Below are positions 618 to 17,245 of a DNA stretch of 20,000 bases, piece after piece. This DNA comes from an uncultured virus (IMG/VR IMGVR_UViG_3300031841_004526) (lineage: Duplodnaviria; Heunggongvirae; Uroviricota; Caudoviricetes). Position 1 is the stretch's first letter. The number at the start of each line of letters is the position of its first letter. The translations under genes and the position numbers were made by a program. The stretch lies in IMG/VR virus record IMGVR_UViG_3300031841_004526, one strand, 5' to 3'. A model generated the notes under the pieces. It worked only from the letters and a program-made list of their open reading frames with translations. It made no database searches and was not told the origin of the DNA.

Positions 618-1684
618 AAGTATGTATGAAATTTTGAGTTGTCGAATATATTGCGATCTACACTAGACATCTTGCGTTGTTTTTCTTGTTCTGTTAATTG
701 AAAAGCCGACCTCATTTTAGCTCTAATATCAGATACGATTGGCTTATACCATACTTCGTGTTGAGTAAATACATTATTTAGACCAAAAATATTATTACTA
801 ATAACGTTTTCTTCGATGCTCTTTATATTAAATCCATTATTCTGTGTAATATAGCAAGCTGGGGCTGTTTTATCTACACATATCACACTATTACCATACA
901 ATAAAGCTTCTACGCAAGCGGCTCCACCATGAGAACATTTTGATGTATCTATGTAGCAATGGCAATTATTATGAAGGTCGACCTTTTTGGTATGATCTAT
1001 GTGTCCCAAAATAATGATTGGCTCAATAGTATCTTTAGGGGTTTTACGGCTAATTTCATAGGCATTATTAACTATATTTTTTACAACACTTTCTTCTGCT
1101 GAATCTATTTTGATAATAAGCCTAGCAGATTCTTTATTTGAAAATTCTGATAGGTATGCTATTAGTAATTCCAATAATCCGTCTTTGTGATTCAATGACG
1201 AGAAACTATAGAAATTAAATTCATTTTCATCACTATGGTTGGTTTCCTCGTCTATTCTTTTTAAATTAAAGGGTTCTGGTATAACCTTTATTTTTTTAAA
1301 TACCCCAGACTCTCTCAGTATTTTTTCCCCATAGAAAGAGTTGACCCACACTTCATCCATCATGTTGATTTTTTCAATCCATCCAGTATGAGATAGATTT
1401 CTCGTTGCTATTTTTGGCACACAAATATTTTTACCAAAACGATTATTGTATTCATAAAATTCTGGTAATGTATCTTGTATGACGCAATCGTAGTTGTACT
1501 GTTTGTTGTTTTCTAGAGATAGCAAATCTTTATCTAAATTAGTTACATAGTTATCTATGGTAAGATAGATAGGTCTAATAGATAAATTAACATTAGCAAT
1601 ATTATTCAGTGCTTCTATATAGCGTAAAGAAGCATAGCCAAAACTGTTTTTCTCTCTATAATGTCCTAGATATAGAATATTCAT
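614..1684 (-). CDS. Glycosyltransferase, GT-B fold (GT4-like), with a degenerate catalytic motif
   Basis: Start reassigned to MNILYLGHY (ATG at 1684, ATGA overlap with the upstream stop). Contains 'MDEVWVNS', 'IKVIPEPFN', 'HKDGLLELLIAYLSEF' and 'CHCYIDTSKCSHGGAACVEALLYGNSVI', the region equivalent to the EX7E motif. Confidence 0.8.
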   Translation of the reverse strand: MNILYLGHYREKNSFGYASLRYIEALNNIANVNLSIRPIYLTIDNYVTNLDKDLLSLENNKQYNYDCVIQDTLPEFYEYNNRFGKNICVPKIATRNLSHTGWIEKINMMDEVWVNSFYGEKILRESGVFKKIKVIPEPFNLKRIDEETNHSDENEFNFYSFSSLNHKDGLLELLIAYLSEFSNKESARLIIKIDSAEESVVKNIVNNAYEISRKTPKDTIEPIIILGHIDHTKKVDLHNNCHCYIDTSKCSHGGAACVEALLYGNSVICVDKTAPACYITQNNGFNIKSIEENVISNNIFGLNNVFTQHEVWYKPIVSDIRAKMRSAFQLTEQEKQRKMSSVDRNIFDNSKFHTYL

Positions 1685-3312
1685 GCGTATTGAACTACAT
1701 GGTTCATCATTTCTGGAGGATCTATTTCTCCCACCCTGACCTTTTCCCATATGGTTTTGCTATTCATAAAACCTTCCAGAGATTTTATGGCGTTATCCAT
1801 TGTAAATGGTTGCACCTTACCATTACTTGCTACATATCCAACATCAGCTGAGTGAACGATATTTTGAAAAATAGCGGTATGCTTAATGTGAGGAGCATTA
1901 ATAACATGATCAGCAATAAAGTTTAAGACTTTTCTATTACTAGGTAATGGTGGAACTTTTACTTCTGGTTGTGGTAAAGCTGGTTTTGCGTCCCACTTGC
2001 CTTGTAATCCAGTTAATTCGATATTGTCAAATATACGTTCGAAAGCCTCTGCGGTTTTATTCCAATCGTAACTACTAGTTAATTTATTTCTCAAATTCTC
2101 TGTCTGGCTCATGCGTTTGATAAAAGATAGATCTTTTAGCTCATTATATTTCTTAACTAGAATATCTATACATTTATCATCATCTGGATAAACACGATCA
2201 GCATTAGTTTCTAGCTCTCTAAAGTAAGATGCTACTGGAACAATATCTGCCCCTATATTATCTCCTACTTCTCTCATGGCTCCATGATCTACTGTGACTA
2301 CAGGTATGCCACAGGCAGCAGCTTCTACTGGTGGGATACCGAATCCTTCACAAATAGCATATTGAACATAAACATCAAAGCTATTTATAACCTTGGCCAA
2401 ATCTTTATCTTCTAAACCATTTGAAACAGTACACATTCCACAGGCTTTTTGATTGCAATGCTTACAACCTGTAGGATGTTCATGAAATGTACTAGCATAA
2501 TACTTCTTGCATGCTTGACACTTGTATGTAAAATATACCAGGGACATAGCATCATAATACATTAATAGATCTGGTAAATTCCATGCGTTTAAATCTGGAT
2601 AGCTAGTGTGCAGATACAACTTAGCATTAGGTGCTGATCGAGAAACTTCTTTGATAATTTTGATAAGGTTTGGAATTAATTTGCGTTTTTGATTTCTCAT
2701 TACAGATCCAATAATAAAGTCTGATGGTGATAAACCAAGTTGTTGTTTCAGCATTTCTTTAGGTTCTTTACTTGGTGCAAAGACATCTATATTTACTGCG
2801 TCATTGACTGGTTCTACTAAATTCATAGGCACACCAGTAGATTTTAAATAATCAACGCCCCATTGTGTGTGTGCAGATACAGTGTCAGCACTACTAAATG
2901 TTTGCAGCCAATCTGTTTTTTGTGGTGCAGAATCGATGGTTGGGCCTATCATCCAATGAAAGTATGGTCGTAATGGTGACATCTCTACAAAACTAGACAT
3001 CCAATAATCACGAATGTCAAATACTATATCTGGCTTAAAGTCTATGCAAGATCTTTCAAAGCCCCACGCCCCAAAGGCATTGCTGGGATTGCTCCCATAT
3101 TGTTTCAATGCCTCTGGATCTGTTGGCGCGTTGGCATAAATCTTCCAAGGTTCTTTCTTAGGGACATTGATGGTTCTATATGCAGACAGTTCAGCAATTT
3201 CATACTTATTTGTAGCATGTAGTTTTGAAAGGATACTTTTTGTGTAATTACCAAATCCAGAATCTACATGACTAGACTCGGCACACATTAATATTCTTTT
3301 TTTGCCCATCAT
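1681..3312 (-). CDS. Glycosyltransferase family 4 (GT-B) with a Cys-rich insertion
   Basis: N-terminal 'KRILM...SGFG', 'KPDIVF', 'RNQKRK', intact EX7E 'EGFGIPPVEAAACGIPVV' and 'YDWNKTA'. The start could be 3312 or 3309. Confidence 0.9.
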   Translation of the reverse strand: MMGKKRILMCAESSHVDSGFGNYTKSILSKLHATNKYEIAELSAYRTINVPKKEPWKIYANAPTDPEALKQYGSNPSNAFGAWGFERSCIDFKPDIVFDIRDYWMSSFVEMSPLRPYFHWMIGPTIDSAPQKTDWLQTFSSADTVSAHTQWGVDYLKSTGVPMNLVEPVNDAVNIDVFAPSKEPKEMLKQQLGLSPSDFIIGSVMRNQKRKLIPNLIKIIKEVSRSAPNAKLYLHTSYPDLNAWNLPDLLMYYDAMSLVYFTYKCQACKKYYASTFHEHPTGCKHCNQKACGMCTVSNGLEDKDLAKVINSFDVYVQYAICEGFGIPPVEAAACGIPVVTVDHGAMREVGDNIGADIVPVASYFRELETNADRVYPDDDKCIDILVKKYNELKDLSFIKRMSQTENLRNKLTSSYDWNKTAEAFERIFDNIELTGLQGKWDAKPALPQPEVKVPPLPSNRKVLNFIADHVINAPHIKHTAIFQNIVHSADVGYVASNGKVQPFTMDNAIKSLEGFMNSKTIWEKVRVGEIDPPEMMNHVVQYA

Positions 3313-3332
3313 AATCCCTTCGGTTAGAATTC

Positions 3333-3701
3333 TTAGAAAGCTACAGCTTCTTCCATATCCTTCTTGCGAGAAGGTCTAGTAAGCTTAGCAAAGTTACTTA
3401 CTCTGAGCTTCATGCTAGAGTGTTTAACACCATCTTTTTCCCAGGTGTCGTTTCGTAAAGATCCTTCTAGCATTACTAAGTCGCCCTTAGCAAAGGATTC
3501 AGCAATGGTTCTTGCTCCAGTATCCCATGCTTCACAAGGCACAAATGTAGTAATCTTGTCCTTGTTTCCATCGGACTTGGTATACTCTCTAGAAACAGCA
3601 ATAGTAAAATTAACTACTGATGTATCCTTACCATTAGAAGTATTGATTGTTCTAAGGTTAGGATCTCTGGCCAGATTACCCTTCAACACAACTAGATTCA
3701 T
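3333..3701 (-). CDS. ssb: Single-stranded DNA-binding protein (bacterial-type OB fold)
   Basis: 'MNLVVLKGNLARDP', 'FTIAVSR', 'CEAWD', 'KGDLVMLEGSLRNDTWEKDG' and an acidic-aromatic C-terminus EEAVAF. SD AAGGAG lies at 3708-3713. Confidence 0.96.
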   Translation of the reverse strand: MNLVVLKGNLARDPNLRTINTSNGKDTSVVNFTIAVSREYTKSDGNKDKITTFVPCEAWDTGARTIAESFAKGDLVMLEGSLRNDTWEKDGVKHSSMKLRVSNFAKLTRPSRKKDMEEAVAF

Positions 3702-3743
3702 AATAATCTCCTTAAATCAAAAAATAAAGTAACACAACTAACT

Positions 3744-3771
3744 ATTGTAACCCATCGAGTGCCGAAGTCAA
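3744..3771 (-). promoter_or_regulatory. Putative sigma70-type promoter upstream of ssb
   Basis: Minus strand TTGACT-N16-TACAAT, in the 76-bp gap between the dnaE C-half and ssb. Confidence 0.7.
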
Positions 3772-3777
3772 GGCAAA

Positions 3778-5361
3778 CTATGCTTGCCAAACCTTCTTGA
3801 TGATCATACTATCATCCTTCTTCTTCGATGGCTCTAATTTTATTACTGTAGTATTGTCTACAGATAATAAATGTCTGTATATTTTGTATTCTTCAGGAAA
3901 GATTACTGTGTCTATTGATCCAGTATTATCTGCTATTTTAACAAATGCCATTTCCTGTCCAGGATTTGCACCTCTTTTAGTTTTAATCACACTAACATCT
4001 TTAATCTCAATACCTACCATTATATTTCTTGGGAAAGTCCTAGCATTACATAAAGCCCTACAATCTGTATTGACGTAATGTAAGTCGCACTCATCTATTT
4101 TGGAGCAGGACACGCTAATACCTAATAATTGATTCTCTGTGTCTGCTATCCATGCGATAGAGTCTTCTAATGAATATGCTGGATTTTTGAGCGACTCCAG
4201 TAAAGATTCTATAGACTTTTTTCTTCTAACATTAACCTTTGTTAATACGAACGAAATACACTGTAAGATATTTTTAAATTCACCGATATTATTTACAATG
4301 TGTTCTTTCTCTTTGACTGTTAGATTATCTATGATGTCATAATCAAATAGCATCTGTTTTCTGCTTAATCCAAGATAATCAAAACAACCAACAGATATCA
4401 TGCCTTTAGCACCAGTCTTATTGATCTTATCCAAGACCTTGAACATAATCTCTAGATAGTTTGCATTTTGCCTATCTATTTCCAGTGTTTGCATCTTGTC
4501 ATAAACAGAATCCCCGACTCCTTTAATATCTGTTAATCCAAAGTAAATCTTATCGTTTTGTAGTATGCAGTCTTTGTTATTGATTCTAAAGTCAGGATTG
4601 CACACATCAATATCCATCTGCCTACAATTACTTACGAGATCACATATTTCTTGAAAAGGATCAATCTTTTCTCTGGCTAATTGTAGATAAGAAACGAAAA
4701 ATTGTTTAGGAAAATGGGTTTTGACATAAGCCGATAGATATGCATTCATAGCATAGGAAATAGCGTGGCTTTTATTAAAAGAATATCTCTGGCTTTTTTC
4801 AATCCAGTTGAAGATTTCTGTGGACTGCTCAACATTCACCACATTGATCTTCTTGCAGCCTGCCAGGAACTTCTTTTTAATTTTGGCCATCTCTTCTGGT
4901 TTCTTTTTACCAATGGCCTTACGAAGCATGTCAGCGTCTTGTAGGTCAAATCCGGCGATGCCTTGGGCAATTTGCATAGCCTGTTCTTGATAGATCATCT
5001 CACCATATGTAGTGGAAAGAATATCTTTTAGACTCTCATGATAATAATCAATTGATTCTAATCCATTTTTCTTATCTATATAATGATTACTAACAGACTT
5101 GCCATCACGATATGCCTCTAAGCAACCGGGACGTAAAATAGAGATCAAAGCCGATAGTTGCTCTATATTTTCTGGCTTGAGTTTTTTAGCCATTGTTTGG
5201 CCTAGTCGAGACTCTAACTGGAAACACCCCTTAGTATTGCCAGAGCCAATTAATTTCCAAGTTTGTTTACAATCGAGATTGAGATTGATCAAATTAAGAT
5301 CAAGATCTATTTTGTCTTCGGTAAAGCCAAATGAGCAACCGCACTTATATTTTTTACGCAT
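3778..5361 (-). CDS. dnaE: DNA polymerase III alpha subunit, C-terminal half (fingers, HhH, OB fold) of a split DnaE
   Basis: 'FQLES', 'LRPG', 'TYGEMIYQEQAMQIA..IAGF...DADMLRKAIGKKK', 'YSFNKSHAISYA', 'FGLTDIKGVG' (HhH) and 'MAFVKIADNTGSIDTVIFP' (OB). Start taken as ATG at 5361 (MRKKYKCGC), overlapping the exonuclease stop. Confidence 0.93.
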   Translation of the reverse strand: MRKKYKCGCSFGFTEDKIDLDLNLINLNLDCKQTWKLIGSGNTKGCFQLESRLGQTMAKKLKPENIEQLSALISILRPGCLEAYRDGKSVSNHYIDKKNGLESIDYYHESLKDILSTTYGEMIYQEQAMQIAQGIAGFDLQDADMLRKAIGKKKPEEMAKIKKKFLAGCKKINVVNVEQSTEIFNWIEKSQRYSFNKSHAISYAMNAYLSAYVKTHFPKQFFVSYLQLAREKIDPFQEICDLVSNCRQMDIDVCNPDFRINNKDCILQNDKIYFGLTDIKGVGDSVYDKMQTLEIDRQNANYLEIMFKVLDKINKTGAKGMISVGCFDYLGLSRKQMLFDYDIIDNLTVKEKEHIVNNIGEFKNILQCISFVLTKVNVRRKKSIESLLESLKNPAYSLEDSIAWIADTENQLLGISVSCSKIDECDLHYVNTDCRALCNARTFPRNIMVGIEIKDVSVIKTKRGANPGQEMAFVKIADNTGSIDTVIFPEEYKIYRHLLSVDNTTVIKLEPSKKKDDSMIIKKVWQA

Positions 5362-6073
5362 GAGCAAAAGAGTTTTTGAACTGTATCCTGTTAGCAAAAT
5401 TCTTGTGTAACTTGAGAAACCTTATCAATATGTTAGCACAGTCAGTGACATCCTTCAAGGCGTCGTGTGCATTATCAGAGTCTATTCCCATATACGATCT
5501 AATCGAATCTAACGATATGGACTTAATTTCTGGTATGTACATAAACCATAAGTTTACAACGTACATTAGATCTATTCTATCTCTAGGATGAAATATAGAT
5601 GTGGACTTTTCTTTAGCGTCAAACTGATCGTATTTTTCGCTAAGTCTATCTACAATCTTCATATCAAATCTATTGATATTATAGCCACATGCAATAGGTG
5701 CTGTGAACTTACTTTTGGTTTTCTTGCCAGATCCACCTAAATGGTAATTATCTAGGTAGCTAATAAATTGTTGCCAAGAATGTTTTTGTTCTGGATATTT
5801 CAACCAATCTTCCAGAATCGTACTTTTATCGACACCTCTCACTTTGCCGTGCCAATCTAAAATATCGGAATCGGTATATGGATGATTATCAATAGTTACG
5901 CCTTCGGCTTTTTCTAGCCGTTCTGGTTTAAGATTGATATTAAATTCCGAGTTTTCTACAATCTTTAATTTAACCGGGTCCACTATGACTGCTGCGAGTT
6001 GCACGGGGCTGCAATTGTGTGGATCAGCCCCGTCCGTCTCAAAGTCAAAGACACAAATCTTATTCTTGTTCAT
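5354..6073 (-). CDS. DEDDh 3'-5' exonuclease (DnaQ/Pol III epsilon-like)
   Basis: ExoI 'FDFETDG', ExoII 'GYNINRFD' and ExoIII 'AHDALKD'. Confidence 0.92.
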   Translation of the reverse strand: MNKNKICVFDFETDGADPHNCSPVQLAAVIVDPVKLKIVENSEFNINLKPERLEKAEGVTIDNHPYTDSDILDWHGKVRGVDKSTILEDWLKYPEQKHSWQQFISYLDNYHLGGSGKKTKSKFTAPIACGYNINRFDMKIVDRLSEKYDQFDAKEKSTSIFHPRDRIDLMYVVNLWFMYIPEIKSISLDSIRSYMGIDSDNAHDALKDVTDCANILIRFLKLHKNFANRIQFKNSFAHA

Positions 6074-6243
6074 GCAACCTTTTGTACTTCCTGTTGTGGT
6101 TTGAAAACTGCATTTGCTCCATTAGCTACCTGTTTAGCATTACATTTAAGCTGGCAACAAGTAAGCTTTTCTGGTTTGACTTTTTTATACTTGACATTAT
6201 TAACTGTGAAAATATCACCAAGTTTTAAATCTTGAAATTTCAT
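6070..6243 (-). CDS. Small hypothetical protein (57 aa), basic, with a CC-x3-C motif
   Basis: Not in the ORF track. Read by hand: MKFQDLKLGDIFTVNNVKYKKVKPEKLTCCQLKCNAKQVANGANAVFKPQQEVQKVA*. It has an AAGGAG SD in the end of dnaE-N, an ATGA overlap with the exonuclease start, and fills the gap exactly. Confidence 0.85.
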   Translation of the reverse strand: MKFQDLKLGDIFTVNNVKYKKVKPEKLTCCQLKCNAKQVANGANAVFKPQQEVQKVA

Positions 6244-6248
6244 AGTAT

Positions 6249-8111
6249 TTACTCCTTTTTTAGTAACGATTGGACATTCATCATTTTATCCAGCAGGGCA
6301 ATACCTAGGATATCGAATTTTACTACACCTATAGATTCTAAATCATTCATTTCTAAACCGGCTATGTTTTGTTTGGTTTTAGTATCATAAATCATAGGGC
6401 AGATACCAGCTAGGCTTTCCTGGGATATTGCGATACCTGCTGCATGTTTAGATTGGTTGTACTTGGTGCCTTCTAATCTAATAGCTTGCTCAAAGCGTTT
6501 GGCAAGTGGTCCCTTGAGTTCGCCGTCTTGCTTATGACACCAATCTTGCAATTGTTTGCTATTGTTTTCTAATGCCCAGTTGATAATCGAGGCTTCTCCG
6601 CTTTCGTCTTTCATTTCTTGCAGTTCATCTGCAATTTTTGCCTCATCTGGTATATGTTTGGTAATACGGTTCATTTCTTCAAAAGATATATTGCCATATA
6701 CTCTTAGTACCTCTTTCAATGCTCCTCTGCCTTTAAGCGTATTATAGGTAATCATTTGAGAAACTTTATCTTGACCATATGTATTTTTGATATACTGAAT
6801 AATTTCTTCTCGTTTATTAATCGGCACATCAACGTCAATATCTGGCATGGATATTCTATCTTTACTGTTACGGCCAGCGTTGTAAAATCTTTCAAAAATC
6901 AGATTGTATTTGATGGGATCAATAGCTGTAATACCCACCAAATATGACACTAGGCATCCAGCGGCACTGCCTCTACCGGGTCCAGGTAGCCAATGATTTT
7001 TCTGCACATGATTGACTATATCTTGCACAATCAAAAAATAACTACTAAGATTGGCACCTTCCAGCACATCTAGTTCATATTTAATGCGATCAACATATTT
7101 GTTATGCAATTCTTTCGGCACAACATTTTGAATTCTGTCTCGCCAGCCATGACGGCAAAGCTCTCTTAAGTATTGCTCAGAGTTCATTCCGTCAGGACAA
7201 TTAAAGTCTGGAAGATGAGGCTTGTTAAGAATATCATAATCTTCACACATAGAATCCACCAAGTTGGTATTATCTATTTCATCCCCAAGATTAATCTCGT
7301 TGATATCTTCATGAGATAGTATATGATAGCTATCAGAGTGGAAAAATGAATCCATTCCGAATGATTCACCCCTAGATATTTTTTCTGCAACTTTTGGCAG
7401 AGACAGCTTCATATTACTGCATAGCAAGATTCTTTGATCTACGCAATCATCAGCTTCACAGTAATGAGCATCTATGCTGGCTATTTTAGGAATTTTATTG
7501 AGAGTGCATATATCTCTCAGTTTTTGTCCTATGGTTTGCTGGTATTGATTTTCTCGATCCATTAGTTGTACTTCAACGAAAAAATTGTCTTTTCCAAAGA
7601 TATCTGACAGACCACCTATTTCCTTGAGTATTTCGTTATCGCTAACAAAACTTTCTTCAGGATATATTTTGTTTGCTAAATATGAACCAGGATGTCCACA
7701 CAAACACACAATATCATTCTTGGATACCATCGATCCTAACTTGGCCATATCCAAACGAGGTTTGTGGTAAAAGTTTTCTGCTTTGTTAGACTCTGAAACA
7801 ATTTGCACAAGATTTTTCCAACCGTTCAGATTTTTCGACAATAAAACTATATGTGATAATTTTCTATTGTCTTTATTGTGAATATGACTGTCTTGTTCAG
7901 AAATATATAGCTCAACACCAAGAATAGGTTTGATATTTTGCTTACGCATAGTCTGATAAAATTTGATACAGCCAGAAATTGTGCCGTGATCAGTGATAGC
8001 ACAACTTTTCATTTCTAGCTTAGAGCATCGTTGGGCGATGTCTTCTGGCTTGCTAAGTCCGTCCAATAAACTGTAATGCGAATGCAAATGCAAAGGGGTA
8101 TAGGGTTTCAT
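6249..8111 (-). CDS. dnaE: DNA polymerase III alpha subunit, N-terminal half (PHP, palm, thumb) of a split DnaE
   Basis: PHP motifs 'LHLHSHYSLLDG', 'ITDHG', 'PILGVE' and 'DAHY'. Palm motifs 'GPGRGSAAGCLVSY', 'LIFERF', 'MPDIDVD', 'SKHAAG' and 'VKFDILG'. Ends in TAA shortly after the KFD motif. Confidence 0.95.
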   Translation of the reverse strand: MKPYTPLHLHSHYSLLDGLSKPEDIAQRCSKLEMKSCAITDHGTISGCIKFYQTMRKQNIKPILGVELYISEQDSHIHNKDNRKLSHIVLLSKNLNGWKNLVQIVSESNKAENFYHKPRLDMAKLGSMVSKNDIVCLCGHPGSYLANKIYPEESFVSDNEILKEIGGLSDIFGKDNFFVEVQLMDRENQYQQTIGQKLRDICTLNKIPKIASIDAHYCEADDCVDQRILLCSNMKLSLPKVAEKISRGESFGMDSFFHSDSYHILSHEDINEINLGDEIDNTNLVDSMCEDYDILNKPHLPDFNCPDGMNSEQYLRELCRHGWRDRIQNVVPKELHNKYVDRIKYELDVLEGANLSSYFLIVQDIVNHVQKNHWLPGPGRGSAAGCLVSYLVGITAIDPIKYNLIFERFYNAGRNSKDRISMPDIDVDVPINKREEIIQYIKNTYGQDKVSQMITYNTLKGRGALKEVLRVYGNISFEEMNRITKHIPDEAKIADELQEMKDESGEASIINWALENNSKQLQDWCHKQDGELKGPLAKRFEQAIRLEGTKYNQSKHAAGIAISQESLAGICPMIYDTKTKQNIAGLEMNDLESIGVVKFDILGIALLDKMMNVQSLLKKE

Positions 8112-9139
8112 TCTGTACTTCCAGGGGCTTTGTAATATCCTACATTGTAACCGGGCACAGTGTATTCGTCAACCACATTTTTTATTCCTTTCAACTCAAT
8201 ATCATGTTTGACTTGTTCGCACATCGTCATAAAGTCGCCTTGGTGACATAATTGACCCTGACGATATTCTATCAACGGTGTTACGTTAGTATTATCAAAG
8301 GAATTTTTCCCATAATGACAAAGCTTAGTGCATTTCCAGCTTTTGCTCAATTTGGGCTTTTTGCATTTTTTAATTTCGTCAAATTTTGTCCTCAATAAAT
8401 CTTCAGTCTTAAATATGTCAGATCTATCAAATGTCATACTAAATGGACCGCCATCATTGATAAAATATATAGTCACAATGCAGTGTTTCAATTCTGGATA
8501 TAGTTTTTGAGCAGCATAGAAGTAGATCATAAGTTGTGGATCTTTTTCTAGCTTTTCCTGTGTTTTTTCCTCACCAGTTGCCCAATTCAATCTTCTTCCG
8601 GTTTTCCAGTCGATAATTTCTAAGGTGTCATCATTCACCTTGGTAATTAAGTCAATGGTTCCTTTAATTGCTAGTGTGCCTTGTAAATCCCCGTAGTTAT
8701 ATTTTGCCCACGGTTTATCTATAACAATATCAAACTGTTGTTCTGGATACAATATATCACGATTACGTGGATCAAACATACCGTCTGCATATTCAATAGC
8801 CTTATAGGACCATGCCCTACAGTCTTTGCGGTCTTTGTCGCTCCAAGTATGATGCTTGAACTGAGAAGTATAAAAGTCGTAAACGTCATTAATGATATTA
8901 TCCAGATTATAATTATGGATATCTACATTGCCTATGATGTCATCCTCAAAGGAGTGCTCTTCTTTTTGTTCGGTAAATTTGATAAATGCTAATATCTCTA
9001 ATACTTTATGTACTATGGTGCCTTTGTCTGCTTTTTTATTTGAAGGCGATCTATATCCTAATACATAATCAAAGAAGTATTGTTGCTCACACATATTGTG
9101 CGTATTATATGATGAGCTACGGAAATATGTTATTATAAT
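8108..9139 (-). CDS. PD-(D/E)XK exonuclease, Cas4/AddB/RecB-like, with probable Fe-S cluster ligands
   Basis: 'KGTIVHKVLE', 'PEQQF', 'KGTIDL', 'IIDWKTG' and 'QLMIY', with one N-terminal Cys plus C-terminal 'CTKLC...C'. The first ATG is at 9094, but the frame is open further upstream and a strong SD points to ATT at 9139 (see findings). Confidence 0.85.
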   Translation of the reverse strand: MIITYFRSSSYNTHNMCEQQYFFDYVLGYRSPSNKKADKGTIVHKVLEILAFIKFTEQKEEHSFEDDIIGNVDIHNYNLDNIINDVYDFYTSQFKHHTWSDKDRKDCRAWSYKAIEYADGMFDPRNRDILYPEQQFDIVIDKPWAKYNYGDLQGTLAIKGTIDLITKVNDDTLEIIDWKTGRRLNWATGEEKTQEKLEKDPQLMIYFYAAQKLYPELKHCIVTIYFINDGGPFSMTFDRSDIFKTEDLLRTKFDEIKKCKKPKLSKSWKCTKLCHYGKNSFDNTNVTPLIEYRQGQLCHQGDFMTMCEQVKHDIELKGIKNVVDEYTVPGYNVGYYKAPGSTE

Positions 9140-9714
9140 GGTAATACTCCTTTGTTTTGAAGAAATTTTTGAATGATCTCATTTTTTTCGTCTAGACACA
9201 TCTGATTGTTATCTATCGAATAATCAAAGTTCTTGGGGTTGTATTCTGAATCATCCAATGCTGTCTCGCTTGCGTGTGATGAGTGATACAGGTTTCTATT
9301 AAGTTTGATTACCAGACCACCCGCTTTTTTAACAGCCTCAACCTCGTTGGGAAAACGACAATCTGCTATGAGTGCGAGTGGTAGATTTTCGTAATGAATT
9401 TTCCTAATCGTTGCATCTGCCCAAACATTCTGTTGCATTTTACGAAACATATCAGTGCCTACAATTTGCATAACTTCTCTTGCAGACAACTGTTTTCCTT
9501 TCCAGTAACAATCCACCAATTCATTTTTGTGCTTATCGGTACCATAGCACTGATTATAGGTTAATCCTAATATGGTTTGACACATGTGCTTTAGTGGATC
9601 AGCAAAGTTATATATGCAAGAATTTTCTTGCTTTTTGCTAGCCCACAGTTTTTGTACAAATTCGCAAGCACTAGTTTTACCAGATTGTTTTCTTCCTGCA
9701 AATGCTATAATCAT
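9133..9714 (-). CDS. Deoxynucleoside monophosphate kinase (phage dNMP kinase)
   Basis: P-loop 'GRKQSGKT', 'FADPLK', 'REVMQIVGTD', 'DCRFPNE' and 'HASE'. Confidence 0.92.
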   Translation of the reverse strand: MIIAFAGRKQSGKTSACEFVQKLWASKKQENSCIYNFADPLKHMCQTILGLTYNQCYGTDKHKNELVDCYWKGKQLSAREVMQIVGTDMFRKMQQNVWADATIRKIHYENLPLALIADCRFPNEVEAVKKAGGLVIKLNRNLYHSSHASETALDDSEYNPKNFDYSIDNNQMCLDEKNEIIQKFLQNKGVLPL

Positions 9715-12634: not shown

Positions 12635-13115
12635 TATTAGTAACCTTTATTCTAGAGACCGACATTAATATGTCTGATAAATTCTTTATGCTGTTAGATA
12701 GATATGATAATCTATCCATTCTTTGTTTTGCGTACTTCCTAATCTTACTTAATTTACTAGCTCTTTCATTATGTTTAATGGCTTGATATGCTTTTTCTAC
12801 ATACCCATACCCTTTGTAGTTATTGATTTCATCACCAATCACCTCTTTGATCGTCTCATCTGCCCAATTATACCTTGCTGTTTCACGATTGCAAGTCCTT
12901 TGAATATGAAAGCTGAATTGAGCTAACCTGAATGATATCTCAGCACATTGTTGAGGTGTATGTTTCTCAATCACATCTCTATTCATTGTTAAGTATGATT
13001 GCAGTTCACTTTCTGGTAATACATCTTCTGTATACGAGCATAAACCCAGAGTTTTCTCGTAGTCATCAAGAATATTATCCCAGTTTTCTAATTCTTCTTT
13101 AACCGTTTTGTTCAT
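12627..13115 (-). CDS. Hypothetical helical protein, possibly a UvsY-like recombination mediator
   Basis: 162 aa with coiled-coil-like periodicity in the C-terminal half ('LSKIRKYAKQRMDRLSYLSNSIKNLSDIL'), two genes downstream of the recombinase. The ORF is solid; the function is inferred. Confidence 0.6.
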   Translation of the reverse strand: MNKTVKEELENWDNILDDYEKTLGLCSYTEDVLPESELQSYLTMNRDVIEKHTPQQCAEISFRLAQFSFHIQRTCNRETARYNWADETIKEVIGDEINNYKGYGYVEKAYQAIKHNERASKLSKIRKYAKQRMDRLSYLSNSIKNLSDILMSVSRIKVTNNG

Positions 13116-13512
13116 TGATTATCTCCAACCATTTATCTGTTTCATTATAGGGTAGTTCAATAACTGCAATATCATTTAATCTGCACCACTCTTTTTTTTC
13201 ACGATCTCTCTTTTTGTGTTTCATAAAGTTGAGCTTACTGCCATGGAAAAATGGCGTGTATTTGTAGTGCTGTTCACCATGAACCTCTATACAAATTCTA
13301 GCAAGCGGAACGAAAAAGTCAAGGTACAGCGTTTCCGCTTTGCGTAATGGAATACCCACTTCTTCCAGAATCTGCATTGTAGGAAATACTTGGTGAATTA
13401 ATTCTCTAGCTTTCAGATGTAATGCAGACTTGTTTTTTAGTGTGCCTTTAGCAATATGGCCCTTTAGGGACCATCTTTGCATTTGACCATCTAAATCGAC
13501 CACATCAATCAT
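13099..13512 (-). CDS. Vsr/DUF559-like PD-(D/E)XK endonuclease
   Basis: 'LYLDFF...ICIEVHGEQHY...RDREKKEWC..NDIAVIELPY'. Confidence 0.8.
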   Translation of the reverse strand: MIDVVDLDGQMQRWSLKGHIAKGTLKNKSALHLKARELIHQVFPTMQILEEVGIPLRKAETLYLDFFVPLARICIEVHGEQHYKYTPFFHGSKLNFMKHKKRDREKKEWCRLNDIAVIELPYNETDKWLEIINEQNG

Positions 13513-15628: not shown

Positions 15629-15973
15629 TTATTTAGGCCAGATGGTTTTTGGCCCCTTCTCCATTCTTGACATTCCTGTTGGTAATTCGCCGCCGTTTTT
15701 TTCTTCCTTATATGCGTTGTGTTTAGCGTACAATGCTTGTTTTTGGTCAGCACTCATTTTTTCGCTATTTCTATGTGCCAAATGTCCTAGTGTTTTTATT
15801 TCGCTATCTGATAATCTAACAAACCCAGTAGCATTACTAAGGTCATCCGCATACGATCTGTCAGCTTTGGCCTTACACTTTTCGCATTTTTGATCGTCCG
15901 TATAATTATCGAACGTCATAAACAACTCAAATTTATGTTGACACTTACAACACACAAAAGTATATGTAGGCAT
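15629..15973 (-). CDS. FmdB-family zinc-ribbon protein
   Basis: ATG at 15973 (TAATG overlap). 'MPTYTFVCCKCQHKFE...CEKC' matches the FmdB pattern MPxYxYxCxxC...FE...CxxC. Confidence 0.85.
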   Translation of the reverse strand: MPTYTFVCCKCQHKFELFMTFDNYTDDQKCEKCKAKADRSYADDLSNATGFVRLSDSEIKTLGHLAHRNSEKMSADQKQALYAKHNAYKEEKNGGELPTGMSRMEKGPKTIWPK

Positions 15974-16551
15974 TATTTCTTCACTATATGAGACACGTAA
16001 GGAGACCATTCGTCTGGTATCTTATCTATTGTAATCAGATACTGGAAGATTGGCAAGTATTTTTCGCTTTTCGATGGTGCATATGGTGATTTTAATAATG
16101 GCATTTTGGCTTGTTGTGGTGTTTTGTCTCCTTTCTGGAGATTGCATTTCACACAAGCTGTTGTAATATTTAACCAGTTAGTTGGCTTACGACCACTATT
16201 CGCAGGCCATTTAGATTTTGGTATAACATGATCATATGTTAATTGTCTTAAGTCTTTACGAGAACCGCAATATTGACATGTATAATTATCTCTGATGAAT
16301 AGATTTCTTCTAGAGAATTTAATTGGGCGATTAAATATATTGTAGAACTTTAAGAGTCTTACGACAGAAGGCACAGCCACCGTCTTAGACGATGACTGTA
16401 TACCATCTTTGTCGTAGTAAGATAATACTTCTATATTTTGAGAATACCCATTCTGACTTCTGTACCATAAGATCATAGCTTTTTGCCATGAAATTGTACA
16501 TAAAGGCATATAATTGCCGTTTAGTACTAGGCAGTCTTTATGGGCTTTCAT
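15973..16551 (-). CDS. HNH endonuclease (McrA-like, zinc-binding)
   Basis: ATG at 16551 (MKAHKDCLVLN). 'LVLNGNYMPL', 'PSVVRL', 'RDNYTCQYCG', 'TYDHVIPKS' and 'WLNITTACVKCNLQKG'. Confidence 0.92.
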   Translation of the reverse strand: MKAHKDCLVLNGNYMPLCTISWQKAMILWYRSQNGYSQNIEVLSYYDKDGIQSSSKTVAVPSVVRLLKFYNIFNRPIKFSRRNLFIRDNYTCQYCGSRKDLRQLTYDHVIPKSKWPANSGRKPTNWLNITTACVKCNLQKGDKTPQQAKMPLLKSPYAPSKSEKYLPIFQYLITIDKIPDEWSPYVSHIVKK

Positions 16552-16552
16552 T

Positions 16553-17245
16553 TTACAACCTATCCACCATATCTGCAATAATGGGATTTCGAACAATATC
16601 AGATACTTCTAGGTGGGAAAAACCAATGTTATGGACTCCCTGCAATCGCTGTATAATATCATAAAAACCATTACGGCGATTTTCCTGTAAATCTGACTGC
16701 TCTAAGTCTCCTGTCAATACCATTTTACTGTCTATGCCTATGCGTGTCAAGAGCATTTTTAATTGTTCATAAGACGCATTTTGACATTCGTCTGCAACAA
16801 TAAATGCTTCGTGAAAGCTACGCCCACGCATAAGGCCGAGAGGAACAATTTCTATTTGTCGAGAAGATTTCAGCTTATTAAAATGTTGAGGTTTTAAAAA
16901 GTAATCAATTTCATCAAATAGTGGTAATAAATATGGGTGTAGTTTTTCTTCAGCAGTACCTGGGAGGAAGCCTAACTTTTCTCCAGCTTCAACTACTGGT
17001 CTAGTAATAACAATTTTCTTTACTTTAAAATCTAGTAGGTATTCTAAAGCCATACCAACGGCAATATGTGTTTTACCACTACCAGGAACACCTTGACAGA
17101 AACTAACGGTGTTTTCTGCAACAGTGCGAATGTAGTCTTTTTGATTAATAGATCTTGGTTTTAATCTATTTTTAAATCCAATGACAACTTCTTCTGGAGG
17201 GGTAAGTGGATTTCGACCACGATTGGTTTTGTTTCTTTTTCTCAA
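16553..17245 (-). CDS. phoH: PhoH-family ATPase
   Basis: 'GVPGSGKT', 'TRPVVEAGEKLGFLPG', 'MRGRSF', 'DECQN', 'LLTRIG' and 'GDLEQSD'. TTG start with AAAGG upstream. Confidence 0.96.
   Translation of the reverse strand: MRKRNKTNRGRNPLTPPEEVVIGFKNRLKPRSINQKDYIRTVAENTVSFCQGVPGSGKTHIAVGMALEYLLDFKVKKIVITRPVVEAGEKLGFLPGTAEEKLHPYLLPLFDEIDYFLKPQHFNKLKSSRQIEIVPLGLMRGRSFHEAFIVADECQNASYEQLKMLLTRIGIDSKMVLTGDLEQSDLQENRRNGFYDIIQRLQGVHNIGFSHLEVSDIVRNPIIADMVDRL

Follow-up and report, generated by a model that had tools for sequence, protein, structure and literature searches.

DNA polymerase III alpha, the DnaE protein, is the textbook single-chain replicase of bacteria. The only well-known natural division of this polypeptide is, to our knowledge, that of the cyanobacteria, in which the two pieces are mended by a trans-splicing intein. 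The subject of this report is a dnaE divided in another manner. In a stretch of 20,000 nucleotides from an uncultured virus of the Caudoviricetes (IMG/VR record IMGVR_UViG_3300031841_004526; the whole stretch is referred to below as the window), dnaE is found as two separate genes, an N-half and a C-half, between which lie a gene for a protein of 57 residues (s57) and a gene for a DnaQ-like exonuclease (exo). As judged from the sequence, the two halves very probably form an obligate two-chain, intein-free DnaE replicase with a composite active site, the chains being produced from a translationally coupled operon and docking with one another without ligation.

Several described systems bear on this arrangement. 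Besides the split-intein dnaE of cyanobacteria, "fractured" dnaE genes have been described that carry split inteins together with a free homing endonuclease gene (Dassa et al., 2009; PMC2677866). Intein-free splits are known for the B-family polymerase of Aeromonas phages 25 and 44RR (43A/43B), and the nrdA gene of phage Aeh1 is likewise split (PMC2988022). The DNAP-N and DNAP-C proteins of phage PhiKZ form a 1:1 complex (bioRxiv 10.64898/2026.09.30.755723), and the pieces of split B-family enzymes are reported to co-purify and to be active (PMC2988022; bioRxiv 10.64898/2026.09.30.755723). Within the C family itself, group 2.2 jumbo phages are predicted to encode a minimal Pol III alpha split into N and C proteins (Iyer et al., 2021; PMC7824862). 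That minimal enzyme comprises the core nucleotidyltransferase and template-binding parts, its genes lie far apart, and it occurs with a family B polymerase (PMC7824862). In the replicase core of E. coli, the C-terminal segment of the epsilon subunit binds the PHP domain of alpha (PMC3664792).

Two halves of DnaE and the break between them

A preliminary description of the window, made from the letters of the sequence without database searches, placed the PHP domain and all three catalytic aspartates in an N-half at 6249-8111 that ends at TAA, and both the coordinates of the open reading frame (ORF) and the profile matches agree with this. The frame closes with ...VKFDILGIALLDKMMNVQSLLKKE followed by TAA. 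Residues 7-182 of its product match the PHP family PF02811 (E 4.7e-37), and residues 313-603 match PF07733, which represents palm and thumb, along the whole of the profile (positions 1-260 of 260; E 1.1e-73). The PDIDVD and KFD motifs align with those of Taq alpha. Among 27 N-half sequences the catalytic residues D424, D426 and D600 are invariant, and each of the nine PHP metal ligands (H8, H10, D17, H42, E67, H87, H140, D214 and H216) is either invariant or at least 90% conserved.

The C-half begins with an ATG at 5361, stops at 3778-3780 and encodes 527 residues. Its earlier assignment as the rest of DnaE (3778-5361) is borne out by matches to the fingers family PF17657 (E 2.9e-46; profile positions 17-165 of 166) and to the HhH family PF14579 (E 1.1e-10), and by alignment to residues 584-899 of E. 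coli alpha, for which the domain limits used are presumed ones. The match to the OB family PF01336 is weak (20.6 bits, under the cut-off of 27); the AlphaFold2 model of the C-half has a C-terminal beta-domain at residues 447-526. Within the fingers motif LRKAIGKK, which we take to be a contact for the incoming nucleotide in structures of Pol III alpha, L146, R147, K148, I150, G151, K152 and K153 are invariant in 27 sequences and the alanine is conserved in at least 90% of them. Across the two proteins all domains of a DnaE-type C-family polymerase are present, divided between two cistrons rather than carried on one polypeptide.

The two matches meet almost exactly. The phage DnaE profile of PHROG, phrog_405, has 1190 positions, of which 43-617 are matched by the N-half and 619-1059 by the C-half. 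When the halves are aligned to Taq Pol III alpha (2hpi), residue 616 of the N-half pairs with 634 and residue 32 of the C-half (TTG numbering; residue 20 counted from the ATG) with 641, and against E. coli alpha, residue 607 of the N-half aligns with 562 and residue 34 of the C-half (TTG numbering) with 584. Comparison with four single-chain phage DnaE genes (two on gut-phage contigs, the others from Streptomyces phage Wakanda and Bacillus phage 056SW001B) leaves 0-16 nt between the end of the N-half match and the start of the C-half match, and the two matches share one frame. Judged by these alignments the break is a precise one, falling at one point between palm/thumb and fingers with about 2 residues unaccounted for. 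Profiles, solved structures and single-chain phage relatives thus concur with the preliminary description, both in placing the break at the palm/fingers boundary and in finding almost nothing missing or duplicated there. The interval from the N-half stop to the C-half ATG, first given as roughly 890 nt, measures 887 nt and is, as then stated, coding throughout, with the halves in different frames.

To the preliminary description can be added a leader of about 19 residues at the N-terminus of the C-half that has no counterpart in single-chain relatives. In a set of 27 sequences, C7, C9 and F11 of this leader are each kept by 90% or more, and AlphaFold2 predicts it as three short strands with a predicted local distance difference test score (pLDDT) of 75-80. 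In sequence comparison it is absent from forms that are contiguous at the junction (P0014, P0024, P0057 and L085).

The absence of an intein at the break, also part of the preliminary description, has held up under profile searches. Neither half matches a Hint or intein family of the profile library at E <= 0.01, and because the same library detects inteins in the relatives L079, P0015 and P0073, which served as positive controls, a miss through poor sensitivity is unlikely. In split inteins the N-intein measures about 88-105 residues and the C-intein 33-54, the latter ending in Asn before Cys, Ser or Thr (PMC2677866). The N-half of the window stops about 4 residues past the last residue aligned to Taq alpha and so leaves no room for such an N-intein, and the C-half leader contains no His-Asn motif. 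Rfam, which covers only the intron types represented in it, gave no match at E <= 1 on either strand of 3000-9500, and neither s57 nor exo matches an endonuclease family of Pfam or PHROG.

A relative in which inteins do occur is L079 (6001-13641; 38% identical), where DnaE is found in three pieces. The N-half has an insert of about 100 residues in the palm. The first C piece has a mini-intein within it and an N-split-intein at its end; beyond a LAGLIDADG gene comes the second C piece, which opens with a C-intein. The split-intein break lies within the C-half, between FNK and SH, and the junction between N-half and C-half is plain, as in the window. Two unidentified ORFs follow exo at this locus. 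The arrangement of the L079 C-half is of the fractured-gene type (Dassa et al., 2009; PMC2677866).

Recurrence and conservation of the split operon

The breakpoint and gene order of the window, sought in other phage contigs, recur widely. A first scan of IMG/VR with the N-half as query yielded 76 loci with 38-97% N-half identity, 5 of them cut by contig ends and 71 informative. N-half, exo and C-half stand in this order on one strand in 71 of the 71. In 69, the N-half frame closes 0-10 residues beyond the end of its alignment, and the remaining two (L079, whose alignment ends early, and L005, which has a 5' in-frame TGA) were found on inspection to end at the same site. A second IMG/VR scan, started from the contiguous relative P0024, gave 80 loci of which 79 are split alike; this set overlaps the first by at least five contigs. 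Among the best 150 representatives of 50%-identity clusters of 1.84 billion proteins, 141 have the split form (124 N-only and 17 N-only with inserts, all ending at the junction), 6 run through the junction and 3 have other forms. The best 120 matches in a second protein database are all 579-645 aa long and contain PHP and PF07733 only.

All four genes are under strong purifying selection. In unsaturated pairs, the ratio of nonsynonymous to synonymous substitution rates (dN/dS) is 0.032 for the N-half, 0.067 for s57, 0.014 for exo and 0.031 for the C-half between L006 and L010 (dS 0.19-0.74), and 0.071 for s57, 0.037 for exo and 0.022 for the C-half between the window and L005, a comparison that covers these three genes only, so that the N-half figure comes from L006/L010. 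Three relatives rated 100% complete (G001-G003; 159.7, 159.3 and 232.7 kb) contain one PF07733 match each and no match to A-family or B-family polymerase profiles. The N-domain of DnaN (PF00712) likewise found no match in these three genomes, and the phage may use the clamp of its host, an unrecognised clamp, or none. The view that the split is functional and not decayed is upheld by its conservation over 38-97% identity, by purifying selection and by its product being the only polymerase detected in complete relatives.

The window stretch occurs in 20 DNA runs from 6 studies labelled seawater, estuary or marine metagenome. Contigs of three other studies, all of them Logan assemblies with no indels listed, bridge the junctions (X1 record 4, 4241-8587; X8 record 28, 4351-9100; X4 record 17, 3300-6498). 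Independent contigs from three studies that bridge both junctions rule against misassembly, a doubt raised when the split was first noticed.

The genes of the block are tightly packed. The nuclease gene directly upstream and the N-half share the letters ATGA, in which the TGA of the former overlaps the ATG of the latter. The last codons of the N-half, AAG GAG TAA, provide an AAGGAG Shine-Dalgarno sequence 8 nt before the ATG of s57, the spacer between the two genes being 5 nt. The s57 stop overlaps the exo ATG (ATGA), and the exo stop overlaps the ATG of the C-half (ATGCGTAA). From the nuclease to the C-half, three of the four junctions have a stop/start overlap and the fourth has a strong Shine-Dalgarno sequence. 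Overlapping stops and starts had been claimed for the whole order from N-half to C-half; they are present at s57/exo and exo/C-half and absent at N-half/s57, where the spacer and the Shine-Dalgarno sequence are found instead.

The product of exo matches PF00929 and phrog_192 ("DNA polymerase exonuclease subunit"), its DEDDh residues D10, E12, D137, H203 and D208 are invariant in 29 sequences, and it is likely an epsilon-like proofreader. At the position of s57, 36 of 37 distinct small ORFs align with s57, and F12, C29, C30 and N35 are invariant in 32 sequences. The AlphaFold2 model of s57 (pLDDT 96.1) is an all-beta, SH3-like small barrel. No Pfam or PHROG family matches s57; a word-based protein search returned near-identical proteins only, a protein-cluster atlas viral hypothetical clusters only, and fold searches generic small barrels only (EF-P domain I, E 0.03; FeoA, CarD and KOW at Z <= 5). 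From its conservation, s57 is considered a real accessory protein retained in this group.

The interval between the halves varies from about 0.7 to 3.5 kb among relatives. L035 has no s57 gene and no room for one, a C5-methyltransferase gene occupies the s57 position in L079, and L105, L122 and L161 bear extra ORFs between the halves, in L161 about 3.5 kb of ordinary ones. Such variable cargo fits independent cistrons and not a splicing element. The proposal of a four-part polymerase core made in matched amounts is a weaker one, with evidence on both sides: the start/stop overlaps and the conservation of s57 agree with it, and the lack of s57 in L035, the methyltransferase of L079 and the extra ORFs of L105, L122 and L161 do not.

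The inserted genes are themselves varied. In L161 (5175-8676) there are four extra ORFs (140, 357, 220 and 61 aa), of which the 357-aa ORF has, by eye, a prepilin-like N-terminus. L105 (7623-8649) has two, of 146 and 191 aa, and in L122 (6881-7576) an unannotated ORF of 231 aa lies between the N-half and s57.

Proposed assembly and competing explanations

In the proposed mechanism, chain N (620 aa) would supply the PHP domain, the catalytic aspartates of the palm and the thumb, and chain C (527 aa) the fingers, OB fold and HhH/clamp-binding region. Docking, without ligation, would take place where palm and fingers share a large contact surface in the intact enzyme, and would give an active site that spans both chains. 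Because the catalytic carboxylates are on one chain and the fingers on the other, polymerisation would need both docked chains, and neither would polymerise alone. The split B-family polymerases of PhiKZ and of phages 25/44RR are reported to work in this way (PMC2988022; bioRxiv 10.64898/2026.09.30.755723). The coupled operon would deliver both chains together with the proofreader, and from the layout of the genes its proteins are probably made together. That the chains bind each other, that the complex is the replicase, and which parts exo and s57 play, we infer.

Several observations weigh against an obligate two-chain enzyme. Relatives 44-52% identical to the window are contiguous at the junction: four of them (P0013, P0014, P0024, P0057) are full-length, and two (P0006, P0035) cross it and are split further on. 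L085 is contiguous there too. The existence of these contiguous relatives means that the split is not required for function in the lineage. The ATG of the C-half has no obvious Shine-Dalgarno sequence, and its translation therefore leans on presumed coupling to exo. No RNA run is among the 20 runs that hold the window stretch, so that expression is unseen. L005, the closest relative (N-half 97% identical), has an unexplained in-frame TGA near codon 12 of the N-half.

The L005 locus (5271-6060) has other peculiarities. The nuclease gene and the N-half are separated by an inserted 240-aa ORF without a Pfam match, about the first 12 codons of the N-half are recoded, the TGA lies between the H-x-H motif and HYSLLDG, and the long ORF restarts at a GTG without the first two PHP ligands. 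Possible causes are an insertion of homing type accompanied by a further, very small split, readthrough of the stop, or a mistaken assembly.

Two explanations would remove the two-chain enzyme altogether. The halves might become one chain at the RNA or protein level, through an intron that escaped recognition, a trans-splicing element, translational bypass or an intein of non-canonical type. Split-intein DnaE does occur in cyanobacteria and in fractured metagenomic genes (PMC2677866), and inteins and homing-endonuclease genes are common in this family (L079, P0015, P0073 and L085); the window, however, has an N-half that ends about 4 residues past the palm homology with no N-intein room, a leader without His-Asn, negative Hint (E <= 0.01, controls positive) and Rfam searches, and an interval made up of conserved protein genes under purifying selection that vary in content and in length (about 0.7-3.5 kb). 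Joining is on this evidence extremely improbable. Hardly any probability at all is left for a decaying or non-functional remnant or an assembly artefact. The in-frame stop near the 5' end of the L005 N-half and the low completeness of the window record (about 16%) would suit such an origin, but all 71 informative loci, the most distant at 38% identity, keep both frames intact, dN/dS lies at 0.01-0.07 with the catalytic residues invariant, contigs from three studies bridge the junctions, and the three complete relatives have no other detected polymerase.

Other explanations concern what the chains do. They might act apart, the N-half as a PHP nuclease or phosphatase or in primer extension with a host partner, and the C-half as a DNA- or clamp-binding factor. 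All PHP metal ligands are kept, the genes may be up to about 3.5 kb distant, and in the protein P0131 the N-half is fused to an unrelated cpYpsA SLOG domain and so is combinable with other modules. Against separate action, which is very unlikely, both genes co-occur in the same order at every informative locus, each retains its share of the residues of a single polymerase active site, the three complete relatives yielded no second polymerase, and the contiguous relatives show the two parts as one enzyme. Within the two-chain reading itself, s57 might be a required bridging or clasp subunit, its Cys-Cys perhaps sharing a metal site with the C-x-C of the leader. The place of s57 between the halves, its translational coupling, its conservation with invariant C29 and C30 under purifying selection, and the fact that the C-x-C leader and C31 mark split forms and are missing from most fused ones speak for this role; it is nonetheless unlikely, given that L007/L008 and L024/25/27/28 have s57 and no C-x-C leader, that L035 and L079 have the leader and no s57, that Rossellomorea phage phiT1 is split at the same site with an unrelated 49-aa ORF and no such leader, and that the s57 fold is only a generic small barrel. 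A doubtful extension of this idea, to be given somewhat less weight still, is that the covalent link between palm and fingers has been permanently replaced by dedicated assembly elements, namely the C-x-C leader as a beta-hairpin and the SH3-like s57, maybe with a shared metal site. In that case the replisome would have the module of fingers, clamp-binding region and OB fold as a subunit of its own, separable and perhaps open to exchange or regulation. To judge from the sequences, the imperfect co-occurrence of the two cysteine features speaks against the shared-metal version.

A zinc clasp between the Cys-Cys of s57 and the C-x-C of the leader was considered and set aside, as the two features do not co-occur strictly across lineages.

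Origin, gene neighbourhood and related systems

In phylogenetic trees the ingroup forms a well-supported clade apart from the DnaE of cultured phages and gut phages, and two groups that are contiguous at the junction branch from within the split forms. An approximately unbiased test of all split rows as one clade gave p = 0.053, for a group named after inspection of the tree. One split followed by re-fusions and several independent splits cannot be told apart from these sequences. The dnaE of phiT1 groups with single-chain phage DnaE and is cut at the same linker; because it sits among single-chain forms, has an unrelated 49-aa ORF and has no exo between its halves, it is taken as an independent split at the same site. 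For the contiguous form P0014, a scan of viral contigs for its genomic context gave no relative and a scan of metagenomes gave one locus, 31% identical.

The dnaE of this phage group is a frequent target of mobile elements. L085 (2983-12348) keeps the synteny of the family, its dnaE being split before PDIDVD, in a palm loop, by a 236-aa ORF that is LAGLIDADG-like by eye; its PD-(D/E)XK nuclease (674 aa) seems, also by eye, to hold an intein-like LAGLIDADG insert. L085 has no s57-like ORF, and its exo lies downstream of the genes for single-stranded DNA-binding protein (SSB) and a glycosyltransferase, so that exo either moved into or out of the dnaE linker. In P0131 (762 aa) the N-half likewise stops at the junction, and from that point the protein continues as a circularly permuted YpsA SLOG domain (PF12694, E 1.6e-35). 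Two cultured jumbo phages of Bacillus have dnaE broken at other sites: in vB_BauM_KLEB27-3 (L083) it consists of two coding sequences (CDS) with an HNH gene between them and spacers of 150-200 nt, an intron-like look, and in vB_BceM_WH1 (L082) it lies in three CDS. DnaE fragments make up several PHROG families (phrog_13169, 11165, 12219 and 21652).

The source record of the window is a 23-kb IMG/VR virus record rated about 16% complete. According to the ORF list and to Pfam and PHROG profiles, the genes of Table 1 are on the minus strand and form one block, with the order PD-(D/E)XK nuclease, N-half, s57, exo, C-half and SSB on a single strand (Table 1). Farther upstream are genes for primase, DnaB-like helicase, UvsX-like recombinase, PhoH, ribonucleotide reductase and dCMP deaminase. 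Two free-standing HNH/homing-endonuclease-like genes (13099-13512 and 15973-16596, minus strand) lie beside the UvsX-like recombinase and PhoH genes, which fits a heavy mobile-element load in this phage group. There are no close cultured relatives among the GenBank phages matched, the best of these being about 30-35% identical for N-half, C-half and helicase.

Table 1. Features of the window around the split dnaE, with positions counted from its first letter.
Feature	Position	Strand	Basis
Deoxynucleoside monophosphate (dNMP) kinase	9133-9714	-	profile match
PD-(D/E)XK nuclease	8108-9094	-	PF12705, E 1.1e-16; same place in relatives
DnaE N-half, 620 aa: PHP, palm, thumb	6249-8111	-	PF02811 and PF07733
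AAGGAG Shine-Dalgarno sequence for s57	6252-6257	-	read from the sequence; within the last N-half codons
s57, 57 aa, predicted SH3-like small beta-barrel	6070-6243	-	conservation, dN/dS, AlphaFold2 model
DnaQ-like DEDDh 3'-5' exonuclease (exo), 239 aa	5354-6073	-	PF00929, phrog_192
DnaE C-half, 527 aa from ATG 5361: fingers, HhH, OB	3778-5361	-	PF17657, PF14579
C-half N-terminal leader, about 19 residues, C-x-C motif	5305-5361	-	absent from single-chain relatives
SSB	3333-3701	-	PF00436, E 3.3e-23; same place in relatives
Glycosyltransferase	1681-3312	-	profile match

The split form dominates a large and diverse clade of marine phages, as its share of the nearest protein clusters (141 of 150) indicates. 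If the chains assemble, the active site of a C-family polymerase can form across a subunit interface, and the linker between palm/thumb and fingers is a natural permissive split site that has been used at least twice independently, in the window group and in phiT1. The compact operon of polymerase N, small protein, proofreader and polymerase C would, again if the chains assemble, suit reconstitution, structural work and the engineering of split polymerases. For annotation, the consequence is that thousands of database entries of about 620 aa named "DNA polymerase III subunit alpha" are half-enzymes. These points are of interest to workers in replication and in phage genomics alike.

No account of an intein-free, full-size, operon-encoded two-chain DnaE was found in the literature searched, which took in few subscription journals and left supplementary files aside; genes of this kind might be listed in the files that accompany PMC7824862 and PMC12926913. 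What appears to be new here is a full-size DnaE in two genes of an operon without an intein, the principle of split polymerases having precedents. With the cyanobacterial and fractured dnaE genes the window shares the division into two pieces, and the pieces of fractured genes are likewise neighbours with a gene between them; in contrast to those genes, its junction has no intein halves, and a proofreader and a small conserved protein rather than a homing endonuclease lie between the pieces (PMC2677866). The split B-family polymerases are, like the proposed enzyme, replicative and made of two polypeptides, but the window enzyme belongs to another family and fold and has the proofreader gene nested between its halves. 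Nor is there a free-standing homing endonuclease gene between the pieces, as there is in the nrdA/mobE genes-in-pieces of Aeh1 (PMC2988022). The minimal split Pol III alpha of jumbo phages, as described (PMC7824862), differs from that of the window, where all domains are present, the genes form one operon and no other polymerase was detected in complete relatives.

The single-chain enzymes of E. coli, Taq and M. tuberculosis, and those of phages 056SW001B and Wakanda, have the same order of domains (PHP, palm, thumb, fingers, HhH, OB). In the window this chain is cut between the PF07733 and PF17657 regions into two cistrons, and the C chain has gained a leader of about 19 residues. The nearest likeness is offered by phiT1 (PV767480), in which the 49-aa gp19 separates two CDS, gp20 and gp18, that both bear the name "DNA polymerase III subunit alpha"; the cut falls in the same linker as in the window. 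No paper on this split was found, and GenBank annotates both pieces without comment. It is unlike the window in being only about 31% identical, in having no exo between the halves and no C-x-C leader, and in that gp19 is unrelated to s57. Common to the window and the alpha-epsilon-theta core of E. coli are a C-family polymerase, a DEDDh proofreader on a chain of its own and a third, small protein. The window differs in having alpha as two chains and in its small protein s57, which is predicted to be all-beta, whereas E. coli theta is helical.

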